Shown piece by piece: positions 635 through 42,910 of a DNA stretch of 45,965 nt. Each line of letters starts with the position of its first letter. Within the stretch, counting starts at the first letter, position 1. Where the stretch lies: contig JAGOCE010000001.1 of NCBI GenBank assembly GCA_017998915.1, forward strand, positions 1-45,965, in the 5' to 3' direction. Made by a program: the position numbers and the translations under genes. Under the pieces are notes generated by a model. The model saw nothing but the letters and a program-made list of their open reading frames with translations, did not search any database and was not told where the DNA came from. The stretch is from Candidatus Ozemobacteraceae bacterium. GTDB lineage: Bacteria > Muiribacteriota > Ozemobacteria > Ozemobacterales > Ozemobacteraceae.

Positions 635-3328
635 GTGCCCCGGAAACGAATCACGGTGCTCTCTCGTCTTTTCCCTCTTCTTTTTTGTGCACTGATTTGT
701 TTCACCGGCTGTGGTGGAGTGAACTCTTCCGGGGATGAATCCGGCGGAAAACCGCTTTATATCACTGATCTCGATTCCGGTGGCATCTCGGGGGCGGTGA
801 CGTCGAGTGCCTCGATCGCTATCGACCAGGCGATCGTCGAAGCCGGAAACGTTCAGGCGATCACAGCCAGCAACGGGGCGTTCCTGATGCTGAACCTTGC
901 AGCCGGGGACTACCGGGTGACTGCGCGTGCACAGGGTTACACCCCTTCTTACAGGGAAAACATCCGGGTGCGTTCCGGCATGATCACCGAAGGGGTTGAT
1001 TTCACCATGACCGATGCGACGGCGACGGCGACGCACGACTTCGAGGTAGTGTCTCTGTCTCCGGCCTTCGGAACCGACGGCGACAGAATCTCCGTCGTTG
1101 CACGCGGTATAGGCACGATCCGGGGAAAAGTCACGGTCGCCGGAAAGGAAGTGTCCATTCTCGACTGGAACACCGGGAATAATGGTGTGATCGCCGTTCA
1201 GTTGCCGGACGAGGTCGAAACGGGCGAGGTCAGGGTCATTATCGATGGCGAGACGTCCCACGAGGTGTCTCCCGTCATTTTCACGGCAAAACCCGTTGCA
1301 CGGGAAGTGGTGCCCGCGTCTTCCAAACCGAATGGTATCGTCACCCTGTATGGGCGCAACTTCCATCTCGTCGGTTCTTCGAACAGAGTACGTCTGAACG
1401 GCCTAGAATGCACGGTTCTCGGGTATACGGCCGCCGGCCGGGATCTCCGGATCCAGCTTCCGGCGAAGGCGGAGACGGGAATCCTCGACGTGGCGATCAA
1501 CAGCCCCGAGTTTCAACTCGACGGCATATCAAGCGTCACGATCACCATACAGCCCGAACTCGTGCACCTGAGTCCCCGCCGTTCCGTGCCCGGAAAGACC
1601 CTGACATTGTATGGCTCGAATTTCGTGCCTGACAGCTCAGTCACGAAGGTGAAAGTGGGGGATTCCAAGACCGTCCAGGGGAACGAGATCCTTTCCATCT
1701 CGAAAACGAAAATCACCTTCAAGGCGCCCGAGGTGAACGTCGTGCCTTCCGGACAGACGGTTCCGATCAGGGTCGAGGTGAACGGATACACCACGAATTC
1801 GATCGACTGGACGTCGTATGATCCTACACTCACAACTCTTCCGGTAGGGGAGTATGGAGTGTATGACTTTTTCAATTCCCCGGTTGCGAATAATGGAACA
1901 CTTCATCTTCCGTCGCTCGAGCCCGGGGAAAAGCTTGCCTTCATATCGGTTACTGGCGGGACATCCGCCGAGACACTTGATGGAATGTATGCCTGGACGT
2001 TCACGGGCGTCATGGGCGGCTTGACGACTGATATTCCCGAACTTCCGGCGTCGCGACGCCCCGCGGGAAGCGTGTTCGGGTCGATTACCACGAGCCGATT
2101 CAGAGATGTCGGGCCGATGCTCAGATCCTGGTGCCGGAAAGCGTCCGTCCGGTCCTCGCGTCGAACGATCCGACCCAGCGTTTTTGACGACGCGCCCATG
2201 ACGGCAAACTTCTGGATGGTCGATTTCACGAGTTCCGCTCCCGAGAACTCCGCGAACGACGTTCTCGCGACGGGCACGCTCGCCGCCACGGGAACTCACT
2301 GCCTCGTCTATCTCGATGCCTCCGGGTCGGCGCTGGTCGCCTCTGATGCGGAAAACATCGCGGCCTGGTTCGACGCCATCCGGCCCACGCTCGCCACCGC
2401 CTGCTGGGATGGCGTGAACGCGCATCAGCAATACCCGGAGGGGAATATCGACGGCCAGCCCCGCGTCATCCTCTTCCTCACTCCGCAGATCAACCAGGGC
2501 ATGGCTGCCGGGATCTTCACGTTGGGATACTTCCATCCGCGCGACAAGAGCCCCGCATTGCCCCATTCCGCAGGAACGGAAGTCATCTACCTGTGGGACC
2601 AGTGGATGAAAATCAATCCCGACGATTTCAAGGGCGTCCTGGCGCATGAATACCAGCACATGATGTATCACAACCAGAAAGGGGCTCGGGGCGTCGATTG
2701 GCTCAACGAAGGCCTCTCGGTCTGGGCCCAACAGATCACGGGATACGGATTCACCCAGAAGATGCCGACGCCGGTCAGCCAGGTCGCGACGTATCTGAAC
2801 GGCCCGAACGCTGCTTCCCTGAACCACTGGCCGGACGGGGACAGCATCGCGAATTACGGTCTCTCCTACCTGTTCGTGCAGTATCTCTATGAGCGCTGCG
2901 GCGGGTATGCCGCCATCAGGGTGCTTGAATACGACAACCAGCAGAGCGGGTTCACCGACATCGCCACCTCGCTGCTGAACAATGCGGTTCCCGTGACGAC
3001 AGGCGTGGAAGGCTTCTTCAGCGAGTTCGCGCTTGCGATGTACTGCGACGAACTGGGCCTTTCGGCTTCATTGCCCGGCTTCTCCGCCGAGGCGCATCGT
3101 TTCAGGGACCTCTCACTCCGCGGCTGGGTCTCCGAGGTGAACGGCCTGAAACACCTCTCCTATGCGGAGTCGCCAATCAACGCCGCCGCCCTCACGATGC
3201 CCGGTTTCGCCGCCGACGTGGTCGAATACGATGGCGCCACCTCCAACGGGGGCGACCTCGAACTCACCGTGACGGCACCAGCCGAGGTTCCAAATTATAA
3301 ATTATTTGTTATATATTATAAACCGTAG
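635..3328 (+). CDS. lipoprotein zinc metalloprotease (gluzincin type) with carboxypeptidase-regulatory-like and three IPT/TIG-like domains
   Basis: ORF 518..3328. I prefer the GTG at 635, preceded by GGAGGTGGAGGG (614-626), which gives the signal peptide (M)PRKRITVLSRLFPLLFCALICFTGC with a lipobox Cys. Alternative ATG starts are at 593 and 611. HEYQH lies at 2645-2659, followed 16 residues later by WLNEGLS (a third zinc ligand Glu as in MA-clan gluzincins). The repeated motif xVxLxGxNF is typical of IPT/TIG. Confidence 0.85.
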   Translation: MPRKRITVLSRLFPLLFCALICFTGCGGVNSSGDESGGKPLYITDLDSGGISGAVTSSASIAIDQAIVEAGNVQAITASNGAFLMLNLAAGDYRVTARAQGYTPSYRENIRVRSGMITEGVDFTMTDATATATHDFEVVSLSPAFGTDGDRISVVARGIGTIRGKVTVAGKEVSILDWNTGNNGVIAVQLPDEVETGEVRVIIDGETSHEVSPVIFTAKPVAREVVPASSKPNGIVTLYGRNFHLVGSSNRVRLNGLECTVLGYTAAGRDLRIQLPAKAETGILDVAINSPEFQLDGISSVTITIQPELVHLSPRRSVPGKTLTLYGSNFVPDSSVTKVKVGDSKTVQGNEILSISKTKITFKAPEVNVVPSGQTVPIRVEVNGYTTNSIDWTSYDPTLTTLPVGEYGVYDFFNSPVANNGTLHLPSLEPGEKLAFISVTGGTSAETLDGMYAWTFTGVMGGLTTDIPELPASRRPAGSVFGSITTSRFRDVGPMLRSWCRKASVRSSRRTIRPSVFDDAPMTANFWMVDFTSSAPENSANDVLATGTLAATGTHCLVYLDASGSALVASDAENIAAWFDAIRPTLATACWDGVNAHQQYPEGNIDGQPRVILFLTPQINQGMAAGIFTLGYFHPRDKSPALPHSAGTEVIYLWDQWMKINPDDFKGVLAHEYQHMMYHNQKGARGVDWLNEGLSVWAQQITGYGFTQKMPTPVSQVATYLNGPNAASLNHWPDGDSIANYGLSYLFVQYLYERCGGYAAIRVLEYDNQQSGFTDIATSLLNNAVPVTTGVEGFFSEFALAMYCDELGLSASLPGFSAEAHRFRDLSLRGWVSEVNGLKHLSYAESPINAAALTMPGFAADVVEYDGATSNGGDLELTVTAPAEVPNYKLFVIYYKP
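3287..3322 (+). other. AT-rich synonymous-codon patch (last 12 sense codons but one of the protease gene)
   Basis: GTT CCA AAT TAT AAA TTA TTT GTT ATA TAT TAT AAA: 12 consecutive A/T-ending codons in a gene otherwise dominated by G/C-ending codons. Confidence 0.8.
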
Positions 3329-3351: not shown

Positions 3352-3362
3352 CGCGATGGGAA

Positions 3363-4757
3363 TCATGAGAGGCCGTAATTCTTTATCTTGTATTGGAGCG
3401 TGCCGCGTTTGATACCGAGACGTTGGGCTGCCTGCGACTGATTGCCCTCGGTGGCCCGCAGGATGCGGGAGATCATTTCCTTCTCGATGTCGGCGACGAT
3501 TTCGTCGAGCGTGCGGCCTTTTTCTATTTCTGTTGCTATCCAATCGAGGCCGGATGTCGTCGATTCCGGCTCGAAGCCGAGCCTGACTTCCTCGGGGAGG
3601 TTCTCGAGCTCGATCTGGTCTCCCTTGGCGAAAACGGCGGCGCCCTCGATGATATTCGCGAGCTGGCGAACGTTTCCGGGCCATTTGAAATTCTTCAGGG
3701 CCGTCATGGCGCGCGGGGCGACGCCTTTCAGGGCGCGGCCCAGCTTCTGGGCGGCGATGCCGACGAAGTGCTCGACCATCAGGGTGATGTCATCCGGCCG
3801 CTCTCGCAGCGGGCTGAGCGCGATGTTGACGACGCTAATGCGGTAGAACAGGTCTTCCCGGAACTGGCCCTGGGCGATCATGGCCTTGAGATCCTTGTGG
3901 GTGGCCGCGATCAGCCGCACATCGACCTTGATGCGGTCGTTGCCGCCGAGCCGCTCGATCTCACGCTCCTGGATGACACGCAGCACCTTCGCCTGGGTGT
4001 TGAGCGACATGTCGCCGATCTCGTCGAGGAAGATCGTGCCGCCGCTCGCCACTTCGAACTTGCCGCGTTTGCGGCCCGCGGCGCCGGTGAACGCCCCCTT
4101 CTCGTAACCGAATAGCTCGCTCTCGATCAGGTTTTCCGGCAGGGCGGCGCAGTTGAGTTTGACGAACGGGCCGCTGGCGCGGAGGCTCTGTCGCTGGATC
4201 GCCTCGGCGACGAGCTCCTTGCCGGTGCCCGACTCGCCCTGGATGAGCACGGTGATGTCGCTTTTCGCGACCTGCTCGATGCGCTCTTTGACCTGCTTCG
4301 TCTGCTCGGAAACACCGATGATGCGGTCAGATTCAGTCTCGGTGAGGAAGCGCTCCTCGAGGTTCTTCTTCTGCCAGGCGAGGGTGAACCGCTCGCAGGC
4401 CTTTGCGACGACGACGCGCATCTCGTCGATGTCGAACGGCTTGGAAAAATAATCGTATGCGCCTTCCTTCATCGCTTCGATGGCGAGCTTCTCGCTGCCG
4501 AACGCCGTCATGAGGATGAACACGACTTCCGGGTCGACCTGCTTGACCCTCTTGAGGAGGTCGACGCCCGTCATCCCGGGCATGTTGAAGTCGGAGATGA
4601 TCACCTGGAAGGTGCCCGGCTCGATCAGTTTCAAGGCGTCCTGTGGGCTTTCGGAGGTGCGCACCGTGTAGCCTTCCTTGGTCAGTGCCGCCTTGAGACT
4701 GAAGAGAATCGATTTCTCGTCATCCACGATCAGGATGCTGTTCGATTGAAATGCCAT
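3363..4757 (-). CDS. sigma-54-dependent two-component response regulator (NtrC/AtoC family)
   Basis: Receiver domain (ILIVDDE..., DFNMPGMTG), AAA+ sigma-54 activator core (GESGTGKELVAEAI, GAFTGA, DEIGDM) and a C-terminal Fis-type HTH (AAQRLGIKRGTLQYKIKNYGL). Confidence 0.92.
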   Translation of the reverse strand: MAFQSNSILIVDDEKSILFSLKAALTKEGYTVRTSESPQDALKLIEPGTFQVIISDFNMPGMTGVDLLKRVKQVDPEVVFILMTAFGSEKLAIEAMKEGAYDYFSKPFDIDEMRVVVAKACERFTLAWQKKNLEERFLTETESDRIIGVSEQTKQVKERIEQVAKSDITVLIQGESGTGKELVAEAIQRQSLRASGPFVKLNCAALPENLIESELFGYEKGAFTGAAGRKRGKFEVASGGTIFLDEIGDMSLNTQAKVLRVIQEREIERLGGNDRIKVDVRLIAATHKDLKAMIAQGQFREDLFYRISVVNIALSPLRERPDDITLMVEHFVGIAAQKLGRALKGVAPRAMTALKNFKWPGNVRQLANIIEGAAVFAKGDQIELENLPEEVRLGFEPESTTSGLDWIATEIEKGRTLDEIVADIEKEMISRILRATEGNQSQAAQRLGIKRGTLQYKIKNYGLS

Positions 4758-4759
4758 GG

Positions 4760-6901
4760 TTACGCTTCCTTCCTTTCCTGCGGGAGATAGATGGTGAAGG
4801 TGGTCCCCGCGGCGGCCCCTCCGGTCGCCTGACGGCTCTCGACCTCGATCCTGCCGCCGTGGAGGTCGATGATCTTCTTGACGATTGCAAGCCCGAGGCC
4901 GGTTCCGCGCTGCTTCGTCGTGAAGAACGGTTCGAAGACGCGGGCGGCGACCTCGACCGGCATGCCGGTTCCGGTGTCGGCGACCCGGATGACGGACCAG
5001 GGGCTGCTTGCGACATGATTCGCCGATATCGTCACGGTTCCCCCGTCCGGCATGGCCTGGATGCCGTTGAAAATCAAGTTCAACAATACCTGTTTGATCT
5101 TTTCCGAGTCAACGAGGATCTCCAGATCAGGGGGATACTCGGCCGACAGCCCGACGCGATGGCGCCCCGCCTCGTGATCGACGAGGGCGAGGACGTGGGT
5201 GATGAGTTCGGCAAACCTGATGCGGCGCATCTGCGACTTTTCTGGACGGGCGTAGGTAAGCAGTTTCTCTACCACGCCATTGAGCCGGTTCACCTCCGAG
5301 ACGATCACGTCGATATATTCGCGACGGCCATCACCGGTAGGCGTTTCCTCTTGAAGGAGCTGGCCGAGGGTCTTGATCGATGCGAGCGGGTTCTTGATCT
5401 CGTGGGCGACGCTCGCGGCAAGCTGGCCGATCGAGCTCAGCTTATCCGCGTGGTACAACTGCTGCTCGATGATGCGTCGCTGGGTGATGTCGTCGAGGGT
5501 CATGACCATTCCGTAGGGTTTCTGATCGGCGTCACGAAGGAAGGTGAATCTGGTCTCCATCACCTTCACGCCGCCCCCGGCACCGAGGTCGAATTGAACG
5601 TCGAAGGGAGCGCCTTCCTCGCCATCGTCGAGAAGCTTTCGGGCCGCCTTGAGAAACGCACGCCGTGAATCTCGGTGGATGACCTGGAAAAGTTTCCGGA
5701 AGGGAAGGCCCGGCTCGGGGGTGCAGACGCCGGCGAGCTCCCTGAATGCGGCCCCATTCGCCGTTTCGACGCAGCCCTGGCGGTTGAAGGTGATGACGGA
5801 GGTGCTGAGACTCGCCAGGATATTCTGAATGTAGGTCTTCAGGGTTTCGAGCCGGTCGATCGTCTGCTGAATGTCTTCACGGCCTTTCAGGAGCGCGGCT
5901 CCCATTTCGTTGAACGAGAGGGCGAGGTCGCCCAGTTCGTCATGGCCTCGTTCCGAAAGGCGATAGGAAAGATCGCCATGGGAAAGCTGCCGGGCGCCGT
6001 CGCGCACCTGTCGGATGCGTGCCAGCAGCACCCGGTTTGTGAGAAAGACCGAAATGAGCATGACGACGGCGAGTGCCAGGATCGTGATCTTCAGCGTCTG
6101 GCTCCGCGCCTGGGAGACCAGTGCGAGCATGCCTTCCTGGGAGATGGTGCAGTAGATGCGGAATGGCTGCTTGTCGACGGTTTCGGCCAGCTCGACCTGG
6201 CCGACCGAATGCAGGACCCCGGCCATGCGGAGCGTGAATATGTGCGCTGGTCCATCGGCCTTCTGGGTGATCGCCTGGGTGAGGTCCTGACGGGCTCTTG
6301 CGGGGAGAGATGTCGCCATGACCGTGTCCTGGACGGCGATCGTGACGTCGGCGAGGAGATTGCGCGCCATCCGGCGGGCGCGGTTGTCATCGAGCTCACG
6401 GTGGAGGGAAAGAAAGCCGATGAACTCCTCGGTTTTGAACACTGGTACTATAGCTGATAATATAAGTTTGTCACCGATGCCTGACAACTCGATGCGCGAC
6501 AGGGTCATTCGGGGATTGGGAGCGGCGATTGCCGAACCTCGCACAGGCGCGGCGCGGGTCGAGAGGGTGAGGCCGGACTTCAGATGGAGGCGAAGTTCGT
6601 AATAGCCGGAATTGGCGAGAAGCCGGTTCATCTCCTTTTGGAGAAGGTTCGTGAGGCCATACACCGAGTAGTTCACGAGCTTGTCGGATTCGGAATACAG
6701 CGTTGCCATGCGCAGGACCTGGTTACGTTCGGATTCCCAGTAGGAACGGATTGACCGCAGAAGGGTCTCGACGCGTTCCTGGAAGATCTCCTCGGTTTTC
6801 TCGACGATGAGGCGGGTGGCACTCTCGTTGAAGATGAAACCAAGCGCGGCGATGCCGGCGAACAGCACCGACAGGATCTTGACTCGCAGGGAGAGATACA
6901 T
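4760..6901 (-). CDS. membrane sensor histidine kinase (periplasmic sensor, HAMP, PAS, HisKA, HATPase)
   Basis: N-terminal TM helix, second TM helix followed by a HAMP-like segment, H-box SVAHEIKNPLASI, and N/G boxes (LLNLIFNGIQAM, DTGTGM, GTGLGLAIV). The stop is 2 nt from the response regulator start. GGAG lies 5 nt upstream of the ATG. Confidence 0.9.
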   Translation of the reverse strand: MYLSLRVKILSVLFAGIAALGFIFNESATRLIVEKTEEIFQERVETLLRSIRSYWESERNQVLRMATLYSESDKLVNYSVYGLTNLLQKEMNRLLANSGYYELRLHLKSGLTLSTRAAPVRGSAIAAPNPRMTLSRIELSGIGDKLILSAIVPVFKTEEFIGFLSLHRELDDNRARRMARNLLADVTIAVQDTVMATSLPARARQDLTQAITQKADGPAHIFTLRMAGVLHSVGQVELAETVDKQPFRIYCTISQEGMLALVSQARSQTLKITILALAVVMLISVFLTNRVLLARIRQVRDGARQLSHGDLSYRLSERGHDELGDLALSFNEMGAALLKGREDIQQTIDRLETLKTYIQNILASLSTSVITFNRQGCVETANGAAFRELAGVCTPEPGLPFRKLFQVIHRDSRRAFLKAARKLLDDGEEGAPFDVQFDLGAGGGVKVMETRFTFLRDADQKPYGMVMTLDDITQRRIIEQQLYHADKLSSIGQLAASVAHEIKNPLASIKTLGQLLQEETPTGDGRREYIDVIVSEVNRLNGVVEKLLTYARPEKSQMRRIRFAELITHVLALVDHEAGRHRVGLSAEYPPDLEILVDSEKIKQVLLNLIFNGIQAMPDGGTVTISANHVASSPWSVIRVADTGTGMPVEVAARVFEPFFTTKQRGTGLGLAIVKKIIDLHGGRIEVESRQATGGAAAGTTFTIYLPQERKEA
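6443..6469 (-). other. AT-rich synonymous-codon patch inside the histidine kinase gene
   Basis: Coding strand reads AAA CTT ATA TTA TCA GCT ATA GTA CCA (KLILSAIVP): 9 consecutive A/T-ending codons. Confidence 0.8.
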
Positions 6902-6912
6902 GGCTGCTCCAG

Positions 6913-7833
6913 TCAGGGCTCGCCTTCGATGAGGCGGTTGAAGTAGCGCGATCCTTCGCGCTTCACCCAGAGGCGCTCTGAAGGAATGTCGCAGGGAAGG
7001 AAGACGGCATGTGCGATCTCCCTCGAGGGAACGAAGGGCACATCGCCGTGACCGGACCAGCGTGGATCGTCGCGATCAACCCAGAGCCTCAACCGGATGT
7101 GCGGGACGGCCGTCGGCCCATTGGGCCCGGGGAAGGGCGAGAACCGGATCGTGCCGGTGACCGCGGAGGCTGGCGAGGCGACGGCATCGCCGGGAACCCA
7201 AAGTGAGGTGAACACCGCGTCGCCAGCTTCGAACACTTCATGGGCCAGGCTCTCATCCGATTCAAGCGAGTACGGGTTGAGCCATTTTTTGTCGAGGGCT
7301 TTCTGAATCCGGTTGGGGGTGATGTCGACCGGGCCCGATCGCATGGCCTGGCGGAGCCGGAACAGCGTCAGCGGCGCTTCGAGGGATTCGAACCACGGGT
7401 AATGCTCGGGGTTGTGCAGCCGAAGCTTGTCGAGAAGGACGTCGAACTCCGGCAGGCTTGCCGGGGGCGCTGACGCGACGGGTGCCAGGAGGTCCATGCG
7501 CGTGCCGAGCATCCAGAAGACGTGGAGAGTGACCGGGGTGGGGCGCATGTTGGCCGCGACCGAGGCGAGATGTGTTCCTTCCTCGATCAGCAGTAATGGA
7601 ACGGAAGCCACATCGACGGGGCCCAGGTCGGTCGACATCGGGAACAGGTGGAGCGAGACCTCGTGTGCGAGCATCGTTCCGATGCGTTTTCTCAGCGAGT
7701 CGAGAACCCAGGACGGGAAATTCAGGCGGGAGGGCATCAGAATCTCGAGCGTGTCGCACAAGCCCATTCTTATAGGAAACAGCAGCAGGACGGCAAGAAG
7801 GAACATGCCTCGGAAGACAGGAAATGATCTCAT
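6913..7833 (-). CDS. secreted hypothetical protein
   Basis: 306-aa ORF with an N-terminal signal-like segment (FLLAVLLLFPIRMGLC). Its ATG overlaps the stop of the upstream gene as ATGA (7833-7830). Any resemblance to periplasmic solute-binding proteins is weak and cannot be verified here. Confidence 0.7.
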   Translation of the reverse strand: MRSFPVFRGMFLLAVLLLFPIRMGLCDTLEILMPSRLNFPSWVLDSLRKRIGTMLAHEVSLHLFPMSTDLGPVDVASVPLLLIEEGTHLASVAANMRPTPVTLHVFWMLGTRMDLLAPVASAPPASLPEFDVLLDKLRLHNPEHYPWFESLEAPLTLFRLRQAMRSGPVDITPNRIQKALDKKWLNPYSLESDESLAHEVFEAGDAVFTSLWVPGDAVASPASAVTGTIRFSPFPGPNGPTAVPHIRLRLWVDRDDPRWSGHGDVPFVPSREIAHAVFLPCDIPSERLWVKREGSRYFNRLIEGEP

Positions 7834-9659
7834 GCTGCCGTGTTCCCGTCATCCGCATATAGGTAGCCCAGGAACTGCCTGTCTGACCGTGCGAGCGTTT
7901 CCACGGCATTCTTGGCCTGGTCCGAGGTTTCCAGGCGGGATACCAGGACGAACCCGTCGAATGCCGATGTGAGGCTTACCATCAGATCGGGAGAGTCTTC
8001 GACGTTTCCGAGATCAGCGAACAGATACTGTGCCGATTCACGGGGAAAATTCTCGAACCACAGCTTCCAGGGGGCTGATTCGATGGCTTTTTCCGGACAT
8101 GGCGGCAAGGGGCCGGCGGGAACGACGACGGCATGCCCAGTTTCGTCCGAATTCCCGTGACTGATCTGTGCCGGTATGGCGTTTGAGGCGAGCCAGTTGA
8201 CGGTCCCGGAAGCCCAGGGGAGCCACCAGAGCTTGTGCTGAGTCGGACTCTTCCAGTGCAGATCGATCAGGAGAGGTCGCTTCTGATCGTTGGCGAAGGC
8301 TGCGGCCATAAGGGCGGCGGCGAGGGACGTGCCACAGCCCCGATGAGATCCGACGAAGGCGATCGTGCGGCATTCATTCTCATCGGCCTTCCTGGCAAGA
8401 TCGGCGGCGATTTTTGTCAGGATGAGCGCTTCGCGGGGTGATGTCGCTGCGAACGAAAGGGGCCGGAGCATGTCCGTGGCCGTTTCACTCGGTAGGGCGG
8501 GAATGGTGCCGATGACGGGAGGCTGATCGCTGAGAATCGAGCCTTGCGACCGGCCCTTTCTCCTGCGGAGCACGAACCAGACGATGAGCGGCCCGGAAAG
8601 CAGGCCGAGCGGTTGTGCCGAGAACCATGCATCCAGGATCCGCGACGGGAACGCGCGCGACTGGTGTGAGAGATCGAGTTTGCCGTATCCCGATTTGAAC
8701 AGGCTTGAAAGCGCCCTGTTCTGCTCGAGAAGGTGCGCAAGCTCGGTTCTCTTCTGCTGTAGCCCGGTCTGGGTCATTGCGACACTGCGCCGACGGGCGT
8801 CGACCTGTTGCTTCGACTGGGCGATCAGCTCGATCTCCTGCTGAATCCGGGTGATTTCGGATTTCAGACGTCTGAGCGCCACGGCATCAGCCTGGGCTGT
8901 GGTGGCGGCTGGATTCCGCACGGAGGGCGTGCGCGTGGGCACGGGGACACGGACCAGGGTGGGTGCATCGCGACCTTCACCTTCGCACGGGCGTACTCGT
9001 ATCTGGGTGCGAGCCTTCGCCGGGGCGGGACGGTGGGGGGGCTTTCGCGTGGCTGATTTCAGGTGGGCGGCTTCGGCTTCGATCACGGCGAGCTCCCGGC
9101 GGAGATTTTCAGCGGCGAGAGTGAGATTCTGGGACATCTCATCGAGCTTCTCGAGTTGGGATTCGTCCGAAAGCGGATCCTCGTCGGGCGAGGAAAAGTT
9201 TCGGTCAGCCTCGAGAAGTTCGATTTCATGCGCCAGTTTGAGGCCGATGCTCGCGAACAGTTCGCTTCTGGTGGCTTCCAGGGCGTTGGTGAGATGTGAG
9301 ATGAGGATGTCCGACCGCTCCGCGACCGAGGACGCGAACGGGGCCGTCAGCGTCAGAAAAAGCCCCGTCGATGGCGAGGAAATGTAGGCGATGTTCCAGC
9401 GGTGTCCGGTCCGGTCCGATTCCTCTTTCAGGATCGGTGTGGCGACCGCGCGATAGGCTGCCAGGATGCCGGTCGTCTCGAGGGTGGGGTAGGGGAGCGT
9501 CGCCTCCGTGTCGTGATCAATAATTATTGGTATAGAAATTTGCCACCTGGCAAGAGGGACGGCAAAACCCCAGACGAAATAAATAATAATAGATATTATA
9601 GCGGCGGCAACGGCGGCTCGTCGTGGGATCGCTCTCAGGAGGGTTCGAAGCTTCTGCAC
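7830..9659 (-). CDS. Wzc/GumC-like polysaccharide co-polymerase-type protein with a degenerate C-terminal P-loop domain
   Basis: GTG start. Architecture: TM1 (AAIISIIIYFVWGF), long coiled-coil region, TM2 (LSGPLIVWFVL), then a MinD/ParA-like domain. The Walker A position reads GSHRGCGTS (8325-8351), which lacks the canonical Lys. Confidence 0.7.
   Translation of the reverse strand: MQKLRTLLRAIPRRAAVAAAIISIIIYFVWGFAVPLARWQISIPIIIDHDTEATLPYPTLETTGILAAYRAVATPILKEESDRTGHRWNIAYISSPSTGLFLTLTAPFASSVAERSDILISHLTNALEATRSELFASIGLKLAHEIELLEADRNFSSPDEDPLSDESQLEKLDEMSQNLTLAAENLRRELAVIEAEAAHLKSATRKPPHRPAPAKARTQIRVRPCEGEGRDAPTLVRVPVPTRTPSVRNPAATTAQADAVALRRLKSEITRIQQEIELIAQSKQQVDARRRSVAMTQTGLQQKRTELAHLLEQNRALSSLFKSGYGKLDLSHQSRAFPSRILDAWFSAQPLGLLSGPLIVWFVLRRRKGRSQGSILSDQPPVIGTIPALPSETATDMLRPLSFAATSPREALILTKIAADLARKADENECRTIAFVGSHRGCGTSLAAALMAAAFANDQKRPLLIDLHWKSPTQHKLWWLPWASGTVNWLASNAIPAQISHGNSDETGHAVVVPAGPLPPCPEKAIESAPWKLWFENFPRESAQYLFADLGNVEDSPDLMVSLTSAFDGFVLVSRLETSDQAKNAVETLARSDRQFLGYLYADDGNTAA
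9516..9602 (-). other. pair of AT-rich synonymous-codon patches in the first TM region of the Wzc-like gene
   Basis: 9579-9602 reads GCT ATA ATA TCT ATT ATT ATT TAT (8 codons). 9516-9542 reads CAA ATT TCT ATA CCA ATA ATT ATT GAT (9 codons). Both runs are entirely A/T-ending. Confidence 0.8.
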
Positions 9660-17150: not shown

Positions 17151-17158
17151 GAACGCGG

Positions 17159-18448: not shown

Positions 18449-18512
18449 GTGTCTCTCACCTTCTCGTTCTCGTTCCCGCTGCCGGCGCGGGACAGTGCCT
18501 GATTGCCGGCCA

Positions 18513-28600: not shown

Positions 28601-28688
28601 CGACTCGTTCCTCTGATTCGACTCTTTGTACCATGATACCCCACAACCGGATATTTTCCTACTCTCTGTCGGGGAAGGGGGAGTGCCT

Positions 28689-28717
28689 TTGACATTTCCC
28701 TGGCCCTTTGCTAGATT
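28689..28717 (+). promoter_or_regulatory. candidate sigma-70 promoter for fba
   Basis: TTGACA (28689-28694), 17-nt spacer, TAGATT (28712-28717), in the divergent region between the TPR gene and fba. Confidence 0.45.
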
Positions 28718-28829
28718 GCGACAATAACCGGCGTGCATGTATTCATGCCGTGCCGGGGCCTACTTTTTTCCGCTGACCGGATTCCAATTCGGGGCCACGT
28801 GCCCCACAATGACGAGGAGGCTTTACACG

Positions 28830-35993: not shown

Positions 35994-36149
35994 AAGAAGC
36001 GTGAAGGTTGAAAGACGCTTGGGCAGCCGGTTTCTCTGGGCAAGCCGGGTGGTTCGCGAAGCGTCCCTACGAAATGTGGGTTTCCCTTCGATGTGTTGAG
36101 GCGCATCGTGATGCGCCCTGTACGCACGGATGCGTTTGGCCGGGGTTTC

Positions 36150-36179
36150 TTGACATTGCCGGTCTGGGGCACGTATGAT
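36150..36179 (+). promoter_or_regulatory. near-consensus sigma-70 promoter placing the transcription start at the STAS start codon (leaderless mRNA candidate)
   Basis: TTGACA (36150-36155), 18-nt spacer, TATGAT (36174-36179). The ATG at 36186 begins 7 nt after the -10 hexamer, and no SD sequence fits in between. Confidence 0.5.
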
Positions 36180-36185
36180 GCCCTC

Positions 36186-36530
36186 ATGAGCCAGTATACG
36201 TGCACGGGGGAAGCCAGGGGCACCGTGTTTGTCCTCAAAAGCACCGGCTACCTGGATGAAAACGCAGGAATGACCATGAGAAAAGCTGTCGAAGAGGCTT
36301 TCCCCAAGGGATTCCGGAATTTTGTACTCAATTTCGAGGGCTCGCCCGTGATCAATTCGCAGGGAATCGCCCAATTGATAGAAATCACCGAGATCGTCGT
36401 CGATGAAAAAAAAGGCAAGCTTGCCTTTACCGGTCTCAACGACCTGACGAGGAACGTGTTCAAGATGGTTGGCCTTCTCAGGATGGGAGACGCGTTTCCG
36501 ACCGAGGATGCCGCCGTCGGGTCTTTCTGA
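36186..36530 (+). CDS. STAS-domain anti-sigma-factor antagonist (SpoIIAA/RsbV family)
   Basis: The track ORF starts at 36093. The 114-aa product from the ATG at 36186 matches typical STAS length. LDENAGMTMRKAVEEA...NFVLNFEGSPVINSQGIAQLIEI...LAFTGLNDLTRNVFKMVGL carries the conserved phosphorylatable Ser context (INSQGI). Confidence 0.83.
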   Translation: MSQYTCTGEARGTVFVLKSTGYLDENAGMTMRKAVEEAFPKGFRNFVLNFEGSPVINSQGIAQLIEITEIVVDEKKGKLAFTGLNDLTRNVFKMVGLLRMGDAFPTEDAAVGSF

Positions 36531-36541
36531 ATACCGGGTGA

Positions 36542-36570
36542 TCGACAAAACGTCGATCTGCGGCTATATT
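36542..36570 (+). promoter_or_regulatory. candidate sigma-70-type promoter for the flagellin gene
   Basis: TCGACA (36542-36547), 17-nt spacer, TATATT (36565-36570). I found no sigma-28 type TAAA-N15-GCCGATAA. The predicted ~57-nt leader contains two copies of the self-complementary GGAGCTCC core (36579-36588, 36613-36621) next to the SD. Confidence 0.45.
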
Positions 36571-37416: not shown

Positions 37417-37438
37417 ACCATTCCCCGAAACGATGATG

Positions 37439-37467
37439 CCGCGGTCATTGACCGCGGTCATTTTTTT
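37439..37467 (+). terminator. rho-independent terminator of the flagellin gene
   Basis: CCGCGGTCA-t-TGACCGCGG (9-bp arms, 37439-37457), then TCATTTTTTT (T7 at 37461-37467). The T-run overlaps the last codons of the convergent hrpB gene. Confidence 0.6.
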
Positions 37468-40028
37468 CTCGGCGCGACGCGGCGTGTCGGAACGGCCGTG
37501 AACGGGTCTTCCGGCCAGGGATGGCGCGGATACTGGCCGCGCATCTCGCGTCTGAGCGCAGGGTAGGCGTTCAGCCAGAAGCTCCGCAGGTCCTGGGTGA
37601 TCTGGAGCGGCCTTCCGGCGGGCGAGAGCAGATGCACCAGCACGGGAACACGCCCGTCGACAACCTTCGGCGACTCGGTGAGGCCGAATAACTCCTGAAG
37701 CTTGACGGCCAGGACCGGCGACCCTTTCTGTTGGTACTCGAGGCGGATACGGCTTCCGGAAGGCACCGCCAGACGTTCTGGGACGAGCAGTTCGATGGCC
37801 TGCCGTTGCCTGTGGGTGAGGCGCGAGGTTACCTCCCGGCACAGATCGAGGCGCCGGAGTTCGGCGAAGCTTCTCGAGCCAAGGCAGATTTCGGGGAGAT
37901 GATCGGCCCACCACCCGGCATCGATGACCGGAAAGGAATACTCGGAAGCGGCACCGCGGAGCAGTTCGAGTCGCAGCAGAAGCTGATCGAACTCTTCCGG
38001 CCAGGCGAAGGCGCGGCGCAGGTCTTTTGCCGCCTCTGCCGCCAGGAACCGCGATGCCGCCTCCTGCTCGTCAGGGGCGATCGGCACGACCGCCTCTTCC
38101 AGCGGAAGATCGAGATATCGCTTTCGCCTGCGTGCGACGACTGCTTCCTTCTCCGGGTCGAAAAATACTTCCCGCTCGATTCCGACGGCGTAGGGAAACA
38201 GGTCGGCGAGCCAGGCCGGTTCCACGGCGGATGCCCAGCGGATCAGCGCCTCGTTTCCGATCCCCCGGCCTGTCGCCGCGTCGGCGGAAGGCACGGTGAT
38301 CAGCTCGGCGTCGCGTACGGAGCAGGTGGGGCTGAGGACAAGCCCGCGTCCTCCAACCATCCTGAATTGGAGACTGTTCTCGGAGCGCCTGCGCGCGACG
38401 CGGTCGGGATACCCGGCCAGCACTGTTTTCAGGAGAAGGATTTCACGATCGGCCCCTGACGGGCACGACGGTCCATTGGCGACATTTCCGACCAGGGCAG
38501 CGAGTTGCTGCGAGACGCGGTCGGCTGTCGCGGCAGCCCGCATGTCGATTCGGTCGCCAGGCCCGCGAAACCCGCATGCACGGGCCTCCTCGAGAAGGTC
38601 CAGTCGAAGGAGCAGGTCGCTGCGGGTGACGATGCGGGTCTCGCGGTCCTGAGTGCGCACGGCGATGTCGCGCTCCCCGAGAAGGGCCGCGAGATCGGCG
38701 CCCTGTTTCGCCATGCCGTGCCCGGCGGCGAACAGGAGCATGCGTGCGAGACGTGGCGCGGCCGGAATCTCGGCCATCTTCGCGCCGAGCTGGGTGATGG
38801 CGCCCGATCGGTCGAGGGCCCCGATCGTTTTCAGCAGTTCGAGGGCGGTGGCCATCGTCGGAGCTGGCGGGGCTTCGAACCAGCCGAAGGCTGTCGGATC
38901 GGGTTTGCCCCAGGCGGCGAGCGTCAGGAACACCCCAGCGAGATCGACGCGCTGGATGTCCGGGGGCGTCGCGTCGGGCAGGAGGACGTGGTCGGCTTCC
39001 GGCCAGAGACGGAGCACCCGCCCTGGCCCGAGGCGGCCGGCGCGGCCGGCGCGCTGTTCGGCACTTGCCTTGCTGATCCTTTCGAGCTGCAGCTTTTCGA
39101 GGCCCGTCTGCGGGTCGAGCCGCAGGATGCGGCACCAGCCGCTGTCGACGACGGTGGTGATCCCTTCGATCGTCAAGGACGTCTCAGCTATATTTGTAGA
39201 TATAATAATTCTTCGTTTTCCCGACGGCTTCAGGGCGTCGTCCTGTCGGTCAAGAGACAGGCTGCCGTGCAGGGGAACCAGCGAAACGTCGCGGATCGTT
39301 GTCGACTCCGAGAGAAGATCCATGGTTCTGGCGATTTCCCCGGCTCCCGGCAGGAAGACCAGCATGTCGCCGCGAAGTGGATCGTTCGCCAGTTCCCGAA
39401 CCGCTGCGTCGGCGGCCGCTCTGCAGATATCGTGACCCGGCTGTTTTAACGCCCACACCCGGGTGACGGGGTGGAGGAACCCCTTGCCCTCGAGCGACGG
39501 GCAGGGGGAGAGAAAGCGGCAGATCGGGGTCGGATCGAGGGTGGCAGACATGACGAGAATCCGCAGGTCCGGCCGTACCGTCTGCTGGATCTCGCGCGTC
39601 ATGGCCAGGCCGAGATCGGCCTGGAGACTGCGTTCGTGAAACTCGTCGAAGATGACGAGACCGACGCCCTCGAGGAACGGATCACCCTGGAGCCTGCGCG
39701 TCAGAAGCCCCTCGGTAAGGACTTCGAGACGGGTGGACGGCCCGGTGCGCTTGTCAAACCGCACCTGGTACCCGATCGTCTCGCCAAGGCGTGTCCCGTG
39801 AAGCGCCGCCATCCGTCGCGCCGATGACAGCGCCGCCACGCGGCGGGGCTGGAGCATCAGGATACGCCTGCCGGACAGCCACGTGTCCTCGAGGAGGGCG
39901 AGCGGTACGATCGTCGTTTTTCCCGCGCCGGGCGCGGCCGTCAGGACGAGGTTCCGGCCCTCCGCCAGGGTGCGCCGGATGCCGGGAATCGTTTCCGTGA
40001 TGGGAAACGAGGGGAGGGCTTTGCTCAT
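37458..40028 (-). CDS. hrpB: ATP-dependent RNA helicase HrpB (DEAH-box)
   Basis: The track ORF extends to 40457. The plausible start is the ATG at 40028 (MSKALPSFPITE...), which overlaps the upstream TAA by 1 nt. Motifs: I TAAPGAGKTT, II DEFHERS, SAT, TNIAETSLTIEG, QRAGRAGR, and a long HrpB-type C-terminal domain. Confidence 0.88.
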   Translation of the reverse strand: MSKALPSFPITETIPGIRRTLAEGRNLVLTAAPGAGKTTIVPLALLEDTWLSGRRILMLQPRRVAALSSARRMAALHGTRLGETIGYQVRFDKRTGPSTRLEVLTEGLLTRRLQGDPFLEGVGLVIFDEFHERSLQADLGLAMTREIQQTVRPDLRILVMSATLDPTPICRFLSPCPSLEGKGFLHPVTRVWALKQPGHDICRAAADAAVRELANDPLRGDMLVFLPGAGEIARTMDLLSESTTIRDVSLVPLHGSLSLDRQDDALKPSGKRRIIISTNIAETSLTIEGITTVVDSGWCRILRLDPQTGLEKLQLERISKASAEQRAGRAGRLGPGRVLRLWPEADHVLLPDATPPDIQRVDLAGVFLTLAAWGKPDPTAFGWFEAPPAPTMATALELLKTIGALDRSGAITQLGAKMAEIPAAPRLARMLLFAAGHGMAKQGADLAALLGERDIAVRTQDRETRIVTRSDLLLRLDLLEEARACGFRGPGDRIDMRAAATADRVSQQLAALVGNVANGPSCPSGADREILLLKTVLAGYPDRVARRRSENSLQFRMVGGRGLVLSPTCSVRDAELITVPSADAATGRGIGNEALIRWASAVEPAWLADLFPYAVGIEREVFFDPEKEAVVARRRKRYLDLPLEEAVVPIAPDEQEAASRFLAAEAAKDLRRAFAWPEEFDQLLLRLELLRGAASEYSFPVIDAGWWADHLPEICLGSRSFAELRRLDLCREVTSRLTHRQRQAIELLVPERLAVPSGSRIRLEYQQKGSPVLAVKLQELFGLTESPKVVDGRVPVLVHLLSPAGRPLQITQDLRSFWLNAYPALRREMRGQYPRHPWPEDPFTAVPTRRVAPRKK
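39186..39221 (-). other. AT-rich synonymous-codon patch inside hrpB (over helicase motif V region)
   Basis: Coding strand reads GGA AAA CGA AGA ATT ATT ATA TCT ACA AAT ATA GCT (GKRRIIISTNIA): 12 consecutive A/T-ending codons. Confidence 0.85.
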
Positions 40029-42910
40029 TATGACGGGGCCTGGGGCGATTCGGGCGTGGTGGGGGCGGACGCGCGGGTGAGCACGAGCAGCGTGATGTCG
40101 TCTTCCTGCGTCGTGTCGGCCGTAAGGTCTCGATGCCAGGTGAAAATGCGTTCGCAGCTCTTGCGCGCATCGTCGCAGAGACGGAGGGCGATCTCCTCGC
40201 TCATGCGCTGATACCCGATCGGCTGGCCGCCGACCTTCGCCTCGATGATGCCGTCGGTGTAGAGCACGACGCGATCGCCCGGCAGAAGATCGGTTTCGGC
40301 CGGCGTCAGCTGGTTCTTCTTCATGCTTCCAAGGGGCAACCCGTGTAGTTCGAGAAAGAGCGGCGGCTCGCCGGCGCGGAACTTCACCGGGTAATTGTGC
40401 CCGGCGTTCGCATACAGCATCTTGTTCTGAGAGGGGTCGAGGATGGCGAGAAAACACGTCATCATCCGTTTCCGCTTCAGCGTCCTGAATAATACACGAT
40501 GTATAACATTGAGTATGACTTCGGGGGTTGTCGGCTGCTCGCTTTCGCGCTCGACAAGCGCCTTTGCCATGGCCATGACGAGGGCCGCCGGGACGCCGTG
40601 GCCCGAAACGTCGCCGACAAGCAGGAGGACCCTTCCGTCCGGCAGTTGCTGAAGGTCGTAGTAATCGCCGCCCAGCGCCGTCATCGTATGAGATTCACCG
40701 TAGATCGCGTATTCGCCGGCCTTCACCTCGTTCGAGGGGAATAGACTTTCCTGGACGATTTTCGCGACTTCGAGGTCGGCGAGGCCTTCCATGACGCCGT
40801 TGAACGTCCGGGCGAGATCGCCCAGCTCGTCCTGGCCGGCATCCGGGACGCGGTGCGAGAATTTACGCTGGCTGATCGCGTCGACGCCAGTCGCCAGTTC
40901 GCCGATCGGCGTGAGGAACCGCTGGGAGAGATGGATGCCGAGGAAGATACTCATCACGACGATCATGCCGGCGAACATCCAGATCCGGCGCTCGAGCAGT
41001 TTCATTTCCTCGATGATCGGCGCTTTCGGGACGAGACCGATCAGGAGATGGTTTGCCAGTTCCTTCGGCTTGATGCCGGTCGCGAGCCAGGCCTGGTTGA
41101 GCCCGGTGAGCTGGCCGATCGTGGTGGACTGCCTGAGCCTGAGATCCGAAAGGAGCGGAGCCAGCCGTTTTGCGAGAGGAAAATCGACCGGCGTGTTTTT
41201 CTCGCTCGCATTCCATCCGTAGATGCGCAAGCCCGGCAATGACCGTTGGGACGGCACGAGATATTTCGACAGATATACACACTCGAGGGCGAACTTCCGC
41301 CAGTAGGCAAGCATCATGTGGGTGACCCGGCCGCGCGAATCCTTGACGGGGAGCATCAGCATCCAGGTCTCGTTTCCGGCGAGCGACAGGTTGAGGATGC
41401 GGCCGATTTCCCGGGTCAGGTTCGTCGCAAGGTTCTCGCCATGAGCGAGAGTTTCCATAATGAGGGACGCGGTATCGATCTTGCCGGAGTATTGTTCCTG
41501 GTTCAGATTGGCGATGACCTGGGCCCCGACCAGCCCCATCATCTTTCTCGCCTTCCGGCCCTCCTCGCCCGTTTCCTTGTCGAGATCGATGGCGACGTCA
41601 CCGGCGGCATCGTAGAGGACCATGTTGTTCGAGAGATACCGCCTGTTGAAAAATTCCATCACTTTCCGCACGCGGGCGAGATTGTTGCCGTCGGTGCGGC
41701 AGGTGCTGCCCAGCTTGCCGAGCGTGATCTCCATCATGCCGCGCATCTGGGGAAAGCGGGCGTCGAAGGCCCGCAGGGCTCGTTCGCATTCGTCATGCGT
41801 CTGACGGATGCGGGCTTTGTACTTCTGATCGAGATAATCCATGCCCGCAAAGATGACGACGGCGAGGGGAATGCCGCTCGCGAAGCCGAACAGGACGACG
41901 AGCCGCCACCTGATCGGAAACTGGAACCGGACGCCGCGGACCATGACAAGATAGCTGATGATCGTACAGGCGCCGAAAAGCAACGTGGCGATCGCCGTGA
42001 ACAGCAACCGTGCCTGCGTGAAATCGACGGCCACATTCCTTGGCCGGCTTGCCCAGATACGCGACGTTGAGGTGAACGGCATCACGGTGAACAGCTTGTC
42101 GCCGATCAGGTGATGCTCGCGGGTGGATCGCTGGTACTCACCGAGCGCCAGCGCGAGGTCTGGTGGTATGGGGGCCTGGGAGTTGAGGTCCTGAATCCCG
42201 ACCGTGATGCCGAGACGTGCGGCGCGGGTCTTCATGAAACGGGCCATCAGGTCCCGGAGTGCCAGCAGGGGCCAGTCGGGAACGTGGTTCGCGTGAAAGA
42301 AGATGCCACCCTTCGAGGTGGTGGTATACCCGAACCATCTCCCCTCCTCGAGAAAAGATGCTTCGAACAGGCTGCGGTGGTGGAGATTCATCCTCGCCAG
42401 CGGAGCTTCGCGGCCGATGAATGTCTGGAACATCGACCACATCTGCGCGATTTTTCGGCGCATGACGTCGTTTTCGTTGTCCTCGGGGCGTGCCTCGGGG
42501 GGGTATTTCGAAACTGCCTCGTACAACCGCTTCACGAGGAGCTTCGAGGGGGTGCCGTCCGTAAGTTCGGGAATGATGAAACCCTGGGAATCGGTGATGG
42601 TGAATCGGAAAATCCCCGGAAACCGCTTTTTCAGCGTCGCGATTCCTCGTCGGAGGGTGCCGACCCGGTCGTTCGATCTGTCTGCGACTTCTCGAAGTTT
42701 GGAAACAAGCTTGCCGAGAAGGTCGGCGGTATTTTCACGTTTGCGGAACGTCAGCAGCGCGTTGTCGAGAAGCTGGTACGATTCCTCGATCGACTCCTGC
42801 TCGATGGTGTTCCAACGGATGCCGAGACCATACGCGACGAGCAGGACCGGCAGGGCGAAAAAGACGAGACACGTTGCGATCCATCTCGTCACAAGGGACC
42901 ATCGGTTCAT
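40028..42910 (-). CDS. membrane sensor PP2C-type serine phosphatase (large extracytoplasmic or sensor region, HAMP, SpoIIE/RsbU domain)
   Basis: N-terminal TM helix (WIATCLVFFALPVLLVAY), about 600 aa of sensor region with additional TM helices, a HAMP-like segment (LSQRFLTPIGELATGVDAISQRKFSHRVPDAGQDELGDLARTFN), then PP2C motifs GDYYDL, VGDVSGHGVPAAL, ANAGHNYP, YTDGIIEA. Confidence 0.87.
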   Translation of the reverse strand: MNRWSLVTRWIATCLVFFALPVLLVAYGLGIRWNTIEQESIEESYQLLDNALLTFRKRENTADLLGKLVSKLREVADRSNDRVGTLRRGIATLKKRFPGIFRFTITDSQGFIIPELTDGTPSKLLVKRLYEAVSKYPPEARPEDNENDVMRRKIAQMWSMFQTFIGREAPLARMNLHHRSLFEASFLEEGRWFGYTTTSKGGIFFHANHVPDWPLLALRDLMARFMKTRAARLGITVGIQDLNSQAPIPPDLALALGEYQRSTREHHLIGDKLFTVMPFTSTSRIWASRPRNVAVDFTQARLLFTAIATLLFGACTIISYLVMVRGVRFQFPIRWRLVVLFGFASGIPLAVVIFAGMDYLDQKYKARIRQTHDECERALRAFDARFPQMRGMMEITLGKLGSTCRTDGNNLARVRKVMEFFNRRYLSNNMVLYDAAGDVAIDLDKETGEEGRKARKMMGLVGAQVIANLNQEQYSGKIDTASLIMETLAHGENLATNLTREIGRILNLSLAGNETWMLMLPVKDSRGRVTHMMLAYWRKFALECVYLSKYLVPSQRSLPGLRIYGWNASEKNTPVDFPLAKRLAPLLSDLRLRQSTTIGQLTGLNQAWLATGIKPKELANHLLIGLVPKAPIIEEMKLLERRIWMFAGMIVVMSIFLGIHLSQRFLTPIGELATGVDAISQRKFSHRVPDAGQDELGDLARTFNGVMEGLADLEVAKIVQESLFPSNEVKAGEYAIYGESHTMTALGGDYYDLQQLPDGRVLLLVGDVSGHGVPAALVMAMAKALVERESEQPTTPEVILNVIHRVLFRTLKRKRMMTCFLAILDPSQNKMLYANAGHNYPVKFRAGEPPLFLELHGLPLGSMKKNQLTPAETDLLPGDRVVLYTDGIIEAKVGGQPIGYQRMSEEIALRLCDDARKSCERIFTWHRDLTADTTQEDDITLLVLTRASAPTTPESPQAPS

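Follow-up and report, generated by a model that had tools for sequence, protein, structure and literature searches.

Discrete, position-conserved AT-rich patches inside the genes of high-GC Ozemobacteraceae, with a possible function as DNA-level elements

Here, we describe short AT-rich patches that lie inside the genes of a Candidatus Ozemobacteraceae bacterium, based on a stretch of 45,965 bases (contig JAGOCE010000001.1; 62% GC, no Ns; hereafter, the window) and on the corresponding loci of its relatives. The patches are discrete segments of ~20 to 36 bp in which 90 to 100% of the third codon positions are A or T. This feature of base composition is robust and lineage-specific, and has so far gone undescribed. 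Within them, A/T-richness is held at all three codon positions, by selection or by a very persistent local bias, and the first and second positions are pushed to A/T as far as the protein tolerates, e.g., by changes from Leu or Val to Ile (ATA or ATT). The reading that we prefer, and that we put forward tentatively, is that the patches are real and evolutionarily maintained elements at the nucleotide level, most likely flexible and easily melted duplex sites for a DNA-binding protein.

The window contains 34 to 36 closely packed genes, which are supported by Pfam matches and by gene calls in syntenic relatives; a self-trained codon-usage caller recovers this curated set. The noncoding share is small (~1.2 kb), so that ~97% of the window is coding. 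The G/C fraction at third codon positions (GC3) of these genes is 0.77 and the A/T fraction (AT3) is 0.23; third positions are thus mostly G/C, whereas a preliminary description of this DNA, made from the sequence alone, had judged them by eye to be overwhelmingly so. That description had listed nine runs of consecutive A/T-ending codons as verified, and all nine are in frame with exactly the lengths given. Five further runs of at least seven codons are present (1889-1909, 3519-3539, 21358-21378, 22831-22854, and 40490-40510). Such runs far exceed what 1000 within-gene synonymous shuffles of the window's genes yield: 14 runs of at least seven codons were observed (0.63 expected), 9 of at least eight (0.19 expected), and 6 of at least nine (0.06 expected). 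A frame-free scan gave a matching result, with 11 AT-rich segments in coding DNA, compared to 2.07 expected, and 7 at a log-odds score of at least 12, compared to 0.8 expected. The failure of the shuffles to reproduce the runs, together with a shift of the residues toward AT-rich codons, upholds the earlier proposal of a signal in the DNA or RNA itself, as opposed to one that simply follows from the encoded protein.

The distribution of the patches among genes is less regular than had been proposed. The preliminary description placed a patch in most coding sequences, roughly one per gene; however, 18 of 36 genes have none even at a lenient threshold, and the counts per gene fit random placement by gene length. 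Ideas of a function exerted once per transcript had been motivated by the one-per-gene claim, which fails. We also detected no regular spacing of patches in the window, as had been noted before, and no preferred location within genes. Only the runs at 9579 (codons 19 to 26) and 9516 (codons 39 to 47) lie near a gene start, while all others of the 14 start somewhere from codon 50 to codon 923; these positions do not fit an AT-rich or rare-codon ramp over approximately the first 15 codons, and this candidate was rejected. Moreover, several of the codons that had been called nearly absent outside the patches are common in the window (TAT 48%, GAA 47%, AAA 40%, and GAT 35%).

An assembly artefact is unlikely because the window sequence is found in at least 20 public metagenome runs (wastewater, digester, and sludge; many studies) and because the one patch compared in this respect, 39186-39221, has the same sequence in four independent assemblies, including that of a strain diverged by ~10% in the flanks (19 differences in 197 bases around the patch). 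The same patches are also present in independently assembled relatives (NCBI, ENA, and Logan). While the window is derived from a metagenome and an exact window protein that we looked up was not on record in a gene-position index, an artefact of assembly or sequence generation, which the preliminary description had considered, or of chimera formation is extremely improbable.

The patches are discrete segments and not a graded effect of context. AT3 remains at 0.23 to 0.25 irrespective of how AT-rich the neighboring first and second positions are, with only the extreme bins deviating, and the nearest-neighbor effect on the third position distinguishes pyrimidine from purine rather than A/T from G/C; a graded context effect was, therefore, rejected. 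Many amino-acid stretches of equal AT-richness use G/C-ending codons. In the observed runs, which were detected by the third position alone, the AT content of codon positions 1 and 2 is 0.65, compared to 0.49 in chance runs and 0.45 in the background, and Ile makes up 24% of the residues in observed runs but 6% in chance runs.

The nearest genomes are metagenome-assembled genomes labeled Candidatus Riflebacteria or Candidatus Ozemobacteraceae. For comparison with the window (W), the syntenic loci of eight relatives were fetched (L082 and L084 to L090). The patch-bearing clade consists of high-GC Riflebacteria of the family Ozemobacteraceae with a GC content of about 0.61 to 0.65, and two Riflebacteria relatives at 51% and 41% GC represent lower-GC outgroups. 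Riflebacteria loci with shared gene order thus span GC contents from 0.41 to 0.65 (L086, L089, and L090 compared with the window), an unusually wide range. Alignment of orthologues, a check proposed in the preliminary description, showed that patch positions are conserved within the high-GC clade (L082 and L084 to L088), and only there, down to about 50 to 70% protein identity. None of the outcomes that the preliminary description had named as refuting was observed: shuffles do not yield such runs, orthologues keep the patches, and the one patch compared across four assemblies is supported. Of the patch codons, a fraction of 0.67 to 0.91 still ends in A/T in the relatives, compared to 0.41 to 0.56 of the other A/T-ending codons, while exact codon identity in patches is retained far less than A/T status. 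Among A/T-ending codons in patches, 62% of third positions are unchanged, 17% exchange A and T, and 21% change to G/C; outside patches, the corresponding values are 27%, 6%, and 67%. These substitution classes indicate that composition, and not sequence, is conserved. Conservation is not seen for A/T-ending runs that are GC-rich at positions 1 and 2 (14647 and 18458). Residues at patch sites are shifted toward AT-rich codons relative to the outgroups. The clearest case is motif V of the helicase HrpB, which reads IIIST with 12 of 12 A/T-ending codons in the window and is of the VVLAT type with 0 to 5 of 12 such codons in genomes of other phyla with GC ≥0.60. New sequence past the right end of the window in three relatives contains patches as well, e.g., over the residues CSLIAANIVS of an RND permease. 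Local hypermutation of the deaminase type, which had also been suggested, is unlikely, and a recent event is excluded because patch positions are conserved over deep divergence, exchanges between A and T are tolerated, and changes to G/C are avoided.

In the Riflebacteria with 51% and 41% GC, the orthologous columns have the composition of the gene background, are less AT-rich than in the 62% GC window, and encode Leu or Val where the window has Ile encoded by ATA; A/T-ending codons do not cluster in these loci. Because the orthologous columns in the lower-GC relatives are ordinary, descent of the patches from an AT-rich ancestor is improbable; judged by these alignments, they look like a feature of the high-GC clade. 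The density of coding AT-rich segments with a score of at least 12 is 15.6 per 100 kb for the window and 14.6 per 100 kb for nine high-GC relatives, compared to 0.3 per 100 kb in other phyla with a GC content of 0.58 to 0.70 (361 kb) and none in other phyla with a GC content of 0.50 to 0.58 (568 kb). In 20 control loci from other phyla (102,017 codons), there is no excess, with 11 runs of at least seven codons and 13.1 expected; 39 HrpB genes from other phyla with an equal A/T-ending fraction show a slight excess, with 5 runs and 1.5 expected, none of at least nine codons.

No sharp shared motif emerged from k-mer enrichment against synonymous shuffles. Of the cores reported in the preliminary description, ATATA/ATATAT-type k-mers are enriched, while AGATAT is enriched only mildly (17 observed, 9.3 expected); TATAAT (12 observed, 9.1 expected), TATAGC, and CTATAG are not enriched. 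In terms of dinucleotide steps, the patches are rich in TA (83, compared to 65.6 expected) and AT (91 and 65.7) and poor in AA (62 and 76.4) and TT (43 and 63.6), and A- and T-tracts are few. The sense strand shows no bias, with 193 A and 175 T overall and 76 T and 68 A at third positions. The patches are predicted to be unstructured and have no Rfam match and no tRNA. Three candidates were tried and rejected, i.e., hairpins or cruciforms (z-scores from −1.9 to +1.3 across patches with no trend), off-frame stop "ambush" sites (TAA-containing k-mers are depleted rather than enriched), and dispersed repeats resembling repetitive extragenic palindromes or miniature inverted-repeat transposable elements (the patches belong to no repeat family and are not alignable copies). 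Elsewhere in the genes, TpA across codon junctions is avoided (TTAA, 4 observed and 38 expected), and the TpA-rich patches stand out more for this reason. On the sense strand, T-ending codons are strongly avoided before A-starting codons (TTTA, 11 observed and 37 expected; TAAA, 16 and 34), and CTN Leu codons end in A/T in 4% of cases before A and in 27% before C.

ATA codons show a peculiar spacing. Pairs at i,i+4 (12 nt; ATA-N9-ATA) occur 8 times in the window with 0.57 expected, and no pairs occur at i+3 or i+5. An ATA codon with a partner at i,i+4 or i,i+2 stays ATA in 61% of comparisons, a single one in 20%. We became aware of the ATA-N9-ATA spacing only after the fact, and ~10 kb of additional sequence from outside the window did not reproduce it; we, therefore, report it as a lead only. 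A bipartite core of this kind, if real, would point to a specific dimeric reader.

The patches, together with the gene whose last codons form one of them, are listed below.

Table 1. AT-rich patches in the window, their genes, and their state in relatives (fractions are A/T-ending codons retained or present; L numbers are the loci of relatives)
Position	Strand	Feature	Gene or context	State in relatives
518-3328	+	TIG-domain surface protein gene
3287-3322	+	12-codon run (VPNYKLFVIYYK)	Last codons of TIG-domain gene; AT-segment score 21.2, GC 0.03; adjoins hairpin 3324-3353	Partial conservation; L082 5/9
3519-3539	-	7-codon run IATEIEK	Sigma-54 activator gene, between AAA lid and helix-turn-helix domain; ATA-N9-ATA pair inside	L082 5/7
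6443-6469	-	9-codon run KLILSAIVP	HAMP/PAS histidine kinase gene	L082, L084, L085, L086 7-9/9 (protein 78-93% identical)
9516-9542	-	9-codon run QISIPIIID	Near N-terminus, unknown protein of 7830-9659	7-8/9 in four relatives (protein 51-79% identical)
9579-9602	-	8-codon run AIISIIIY	N-terminal membrane segment, unknown protein of 7830-9659	L084 and L086 8/8, L082 6/8; lost in L085 (2/8) via Ile-to-Leu/Phe changes
12995-13020	-	Weaker patch HNMTGDIQ	First radical SAM gene	CAT AAT ATG ... GAT ATA conserved; 6/9 in W, L084, L085
14438-14467	-	SCNYNCSYCIQ	Over radical SAM CxxxCxxC motif; score 10.3	6-8/10 in W, L084, L085
15151-15171	-	7-codon run DTILIGI	Radical SAM/SPASM gene	L084 7/7, L085 6/7; ATT/ATA/ATC interchange
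17021-17040	-	GAT ATA AAG CTG GAG ATA	GT28-type glycosyltransferase gene; ATA-N9-ATA pair with GC-containing spacer	L084 keeps both ATA, L085 one
20227-20250	-	8-codon run AHDVLCDI	Methyltransferase gene	L086 6/8
21358-21378		7-codon run NAPSPGE	Within overlap of cyclase and HAD hydrolase genes
22831-22854	-	8-codon run CLFYIFRY	N-terminal membrane segment, GAF-adenylate cyclase gene; score 13.0, GC 0.05
28541-28565		Less pure patch	Probably divergent promoter or gene 5' region	Not conserved
30039-30072	+	MYYIDSNIQYF	Within small lipoprotein gene ~29830-30369	L087 10/12, L088 3/12, L089 5/12
31391-31420	+	MLKDIYLKE	TPR protein gene; score 12.2	L087 7/10 and GAT ATA TAT core
32931-32960	+	10-codon run ANKIAQTINT	ATA-N9-ATA pair	Both ATA kept in L087 and L088 despite spacer changes; ordinary in L089, L090
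33487-33510	+	AGA TAT ATA TTG AGA AAT ATA GGA (RYILRNIG)		L087 7/8, L088 5/8
35307-35336	+	10-codon run DPENIGQYIA	HEAT-repeat protein gene	L087 7/10, L088 8/10; L089 and L090 Leu/Ile codons without patch
39186-39221	-	12-codon run (GKRRIIISTNIA)	Over helicase motif V of HrpB	W 12/12, L087 12/12, L088 11/12
40482-40517	-	Less pure patch VILNVIHRVL	HAMP-SpoIIE phosphatase gene	W 8/12, L087 8/12, L088 5/12

Some patches are informative in their own right. In the histidine kinase gene, the codons CTT ATA TTA TCA GCT ATA GTA CCA are identical in W, L082, and L084, and the patch is still recognizable in L085 and L086. At 33487-33510, the relatives with 51% and 41% GC encode RYVLRNLG with CTC/CTT and GTT/GTA; thus, with Leu and Val codons at these columns, the ATA codons of the patch are absent from both outgroups. 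The patch at 3287-3322 also supplies the T-tail of a strong terminator hairpin that belongs to the convergent operon: read on the minus strand, it forms the T-rich tail (GTTTATAATA) that follows the 13-bp stem 3353-3324, as expected of an intrinsic terminator. None of the other patches has a terminator-type hairpin. Strong GC-rich hairpins lie in tiny intergenic gaps at 3324-3353 (13 pairs), 29800-29827 (12 pairs), and 37438-37458 (9 pairs), and the one at 3324-3353, between convergent gene ends, is likely a bidirectional intrinsic terminator with a T-tail that enters the adjoining open reading frame. Among the less pure patches listed in the preliminary description, 28541-28565 stands apart by its probable position at a divergent promoter or gene start and its lack of conservation. 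The run at 21358-21378 lies where the cyclase gene, at its 3' end, and the HAD hydrolase gene, at its 5' end, overlap by 41 nt as called (21337-21377); one of the two gene boundaries may be mis-set.

We suggest that it is the DNA duplex in which the patches would work, as TpA-rich sites that are flexible and open easily. The reader would be a DNA-binding protein, i.e., either a nucleoid-associated protein with an H-NS/MvaT-like preference or RNA polymerase with sigma-70, making −10-like contacts. In AT-richer relatives, such sites would arise everywhere by chance; as the GC content of the lineage rose, they may have been kept or created by selection, and they would have been placed inside open reading frames because nearly all of the sequence is coding. 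A minority of the patches has simpler roles, 3287-3322 as a terminator T-tail and 28541-28565 probably as part of a divergent promoter region. The broader proposal of a genome-wide, selected system of TpA-rich elements in the open reading frames of high-GC Ozemobacteraceae, serving as landing or opening sites for a lineage-specific DNA-binding or architectural protein or for RNA polymerase, is more doubtful. If true, such a system would come at the cost of rare codons and conservative amino-acid changes, would compensate for the chance AT-rich sites that were lost as this densely coding genome became GC-rich, and would represent a previously undescribed kind of overlapping code in bacterial open reading frames.

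Several observations weigh against a function of the patches as duplex sites. The Pfam matches of the window's proteins include no obvious nucleoid protein that could be the reader. High-affinity sites of the silencer type in conserved housekeeping genes are expected to be harmful rather than selected. The patches have neither a sharp motif nor a consistent −35 partner or orientation, and they have no hairpin or cruciform potential. Their placement, with neither regular spacing nor a rule per gene, offers no geometric argument for an architectural role. The missing strand bias is compatible with a function at the RNA or codon level; translational pausing would equally be expected to give third positions saturated in frame and heavy use of the rarest codons (ATA, TTA, AGA, and GTA); and a local mutational bias that reinforces itself would likewise preserve A/T-ness and permit exchanges between A and T. 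Finally, the data come mostly from one 46-kb region and its orthologues, plus ~10 kb beyond.

Among the alternatives, translational pausing, in which clusters of the rarest codons (ATA, TTA, AGA, GTA, ACT, and TCT) slow ribosomes for folding or membrane insertion, is unlikely but accounts for much of what is seen. The runs are in frame with saturated third positions, patches contain 4 of the window's 9 TTA codons and roughly one in three of its ATA codons, paired ATA codons are retained better than single ones, several patches lie in N-terminal membrane segments (9516, 9579, and 22831), and the patches are conserved in position, as are known rare-codon clusters (PMC5438181). However, positions 1 and 2 and the amino-acid composition are shifted to A/T as well, non-rare codons (TAT, GAA, and AAA) are recruited too, and ATA, ATT, and occasionally ATC interchange freely within patches. 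Moreover, rare-codon runs with GC-rich positions 1 and 2 are not conserved, one patch makes up the final 12 codons of a protein, and in other phyla an equal A/T-ending fraction goes along with no clustering in the control loci and slight clustering in HrpB genes. Sites acting in the mRNA, i.e., unstructured AU-rich windows in mRNAs that are otherwise GC-rich and highly structured, for an RNase of the E/Y type, S1, Hfq, or similar proteins that would set mRNA half-life, are a little less likely still. The absence of a sense-strand base bias speaks against them, as does the absence of any per-gene or per-operon regularity, with half of the genes lacking a patch, and other GC-rich phyla, in which the same need is expected, have no patches. 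These points stand against the conservation of composition rather than exact sequence, the involvement of all three codon positions, the predicted lack of structure, and the absence of patches from lower-GC relatives, which would fit a need that arises only in a GC-rich genome. Public RNA data, consisting of two metatranscriptome runs with 6 to 7% of the sampled words and six short contigs on the window, are too sparse for placing RNA ends.

It is improbable that the patches are intragenic promoters, in sense or antisense orientation, with −10-like elements that would start internal or antisense transcripts in a compact genome with long co-directional gene arrays. Promoter-like matches do exceed expectation (9 compared to 2.8 in 1 to 20 kb, and 7 compared to 3.5 in 20 to 40 kb), and several of them fall within patches (6447-6487, 9583-9610, 3294-3322, and 35316-35344). 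In addition, the window's own intergenic promoters are canonical (TTGACA-17-TATAAT) and have a patch-like composition (19966-19993, 36150-36179, 43041-43077, and 43885-43938), and the high coding fraction of the window is in line with promoters inside genes. Nevertheless, the matches are split between sense and antisense and unlinked to downstream gene starts, TATAAT is not enriched, the hexamer sequence is not the property that is conserved, and spurious promoters are usually purged by selection. We give slightly less weight again to a neutral origin, in which functionless patches descend from an AT-rich ancestor or are sustained by a local mutational bias that feeds back on itself. The phylum has undergone shifts in composition, A/T-ness with free exchange of A and T is also expected from a local bias, and the patch at 9579-9602 was lost outright in L085 and not replaced. 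On the other hand, patch columns are AT-richer in the window than in the relative with 41% GC at both synonymous and nonsynonymous positions, third-position A/T is graded neither by neighboring composition nor by nearest neighbors, and many equally AT-rich amino-acid stretches have G/C-ending codons. Patch positions also persist to ~50% protein identity, and patches are absent from other GC-rich phyla.

The patches are nearest to conserved rare-codon clusters and to the nucleation sites of nucleoid proteins, and they fail a defining test of each. Clusters of rare synonymous codons were reportedly described by Clarke and Clark in 2008, and typical clusters of the %MinMax type are much longer and less pure than the patches. 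The TTA/bldA regulation of GC-rich Streptomyces relies on single TTA codons in regulatory genes. It shares with the patches the presence of very rare A/T-rich codons (TTA and ATA) at particular sites in a GC-rich genome, and in both cases a minor tRNA could gate translation; however, the patches are whole mixed runs of A/T-ending codons and occur in housekeeping, signaling, and transport genes alike. Homologues have been described to keep rare-codon clusters at the same positions (Chaney et al. 2017, PMC5438181). Such clusters and the patches are both in frame, statistically significant, composed of the rarest codons, and found at the same alignment positions among homologues. The patches show the excess over shuffles and the positional conservation of rare-codon clusters but not independence from the residues and from positions 1 and 2, which they also shift toward A/T. 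They further differ by recruiting common A/T-ending codons and by conserving A/T-ness rather than codon identity, and patch-type clustering is absent from unrelated genomes with equal codon bias.

H-NS and MvaT favor multiple TpA steps, and MvaT, in a GC-rich host, tolerates G/C interruptions and disfavors A-tracts (PMC4466236). The sites of H-NS, MvaT, Lsr2, and Rok, especially those of MvaT in GC-rich Pseudomonas (PMC4466236), and the patches are both short stretches of AT-rich duplex with many TpA steps and few A-tracts, which is the composition expected of H-NS/MvaT-like sites; both tolerate G/C interruptions and contrast with the GC-rich genome. By contrast, silencers are known to target mostly promoters and horizontally acquired AT-rich regions on the kilobase scale, whereas the patches are islands of 20 to 36 bp in conserved core genes. 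They do not lie in acquired regions; rather, they are found in syntenic core genes (HrpB, histidine kinase, and radical SAM) with normal surrounding GC content. Silencing of the patch-bearing genes would seem harmful. Sigma-70 −10 elements and the pervasive intragenic or antisense promoters of AT-rich DNA resemble the patches in being TATA-rich and TATAAT-like, and the window's own intergenic promoters are alike in composition; the patches differ from them in having no orientation rule, no conserved hexamer, and no consistent −35 partner.

The genes of the window include the one for the TIG-domain surface protein, a sigma-54 two-component pair, three radical SAM genes adjoining a GT28 glycosyltransferase gene, pseudopilin-like genes, the genes for fructose-bisphosphate aldolase, flagellin, and the HrpB helicase, a SpoIIE phosphatase gene, and a TetR/RND efflux set. 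The three radical SAM genes are consecutive with 4-nt overlaps (12750-18529, minus strand); one has a SPASM domain, two are clearly paralogous, and they are followed by the gene for the GT28-family glycosyltransferase and an unknown gene. This region looks like a small modification or biosynthetic cluster and is present in L084 and L085 but not at the syntenic locus of L086. The unknown gene at 11833-12753 contains an internal tandem duplication (11935-12125 and 12298-12488; ~80% identical and 363 nt apart), and its product, therefore, has two repeated modules of ~121 residues. A row of three small genes at 23101-24868 (minus strand) encodes pseudopilin-like products with N-terminal prepilin-type methylation motifs and adjoins genes for a 740-residue unknown protein and a TPR protein (region 24819-28738). 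Together, they may form a type II secretion or type IV pilus-like module, which is kept in L088. A small STAS-domain gene of the anti-sigma-factor-antagonist type (36186-36530, plus strand) immediately precedes the flagellin gene. The SpoIIE-type phosphatase gene (40028-42910) is also close by, and these genes may form a partner-switching module. The long antisense open reading frame at 35082-36548 that covers the STAS-domain gene is spurious.

If the patches are selected elements, then a bacterial lineage overlays a composition-based second signal on its coding sequences, to the point of altering a conserved motif (motif V of HrpB), and such a signal can emerge as a by-product of the shift of a genome to high GC. 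On the practical side, codon optimization for the heterologous expression of genes of this lineage would erase the patches, and the patches are a compositional trap for gene callers and for detectors of horizontal transfer. More generally, the patches bear on what maintains bacterial base composition, on how AT-requiring DNA-binding proteins or RNases cope in GC-rich and gene-dense genomes, and on how free "synonymous" and conservative variation really is.

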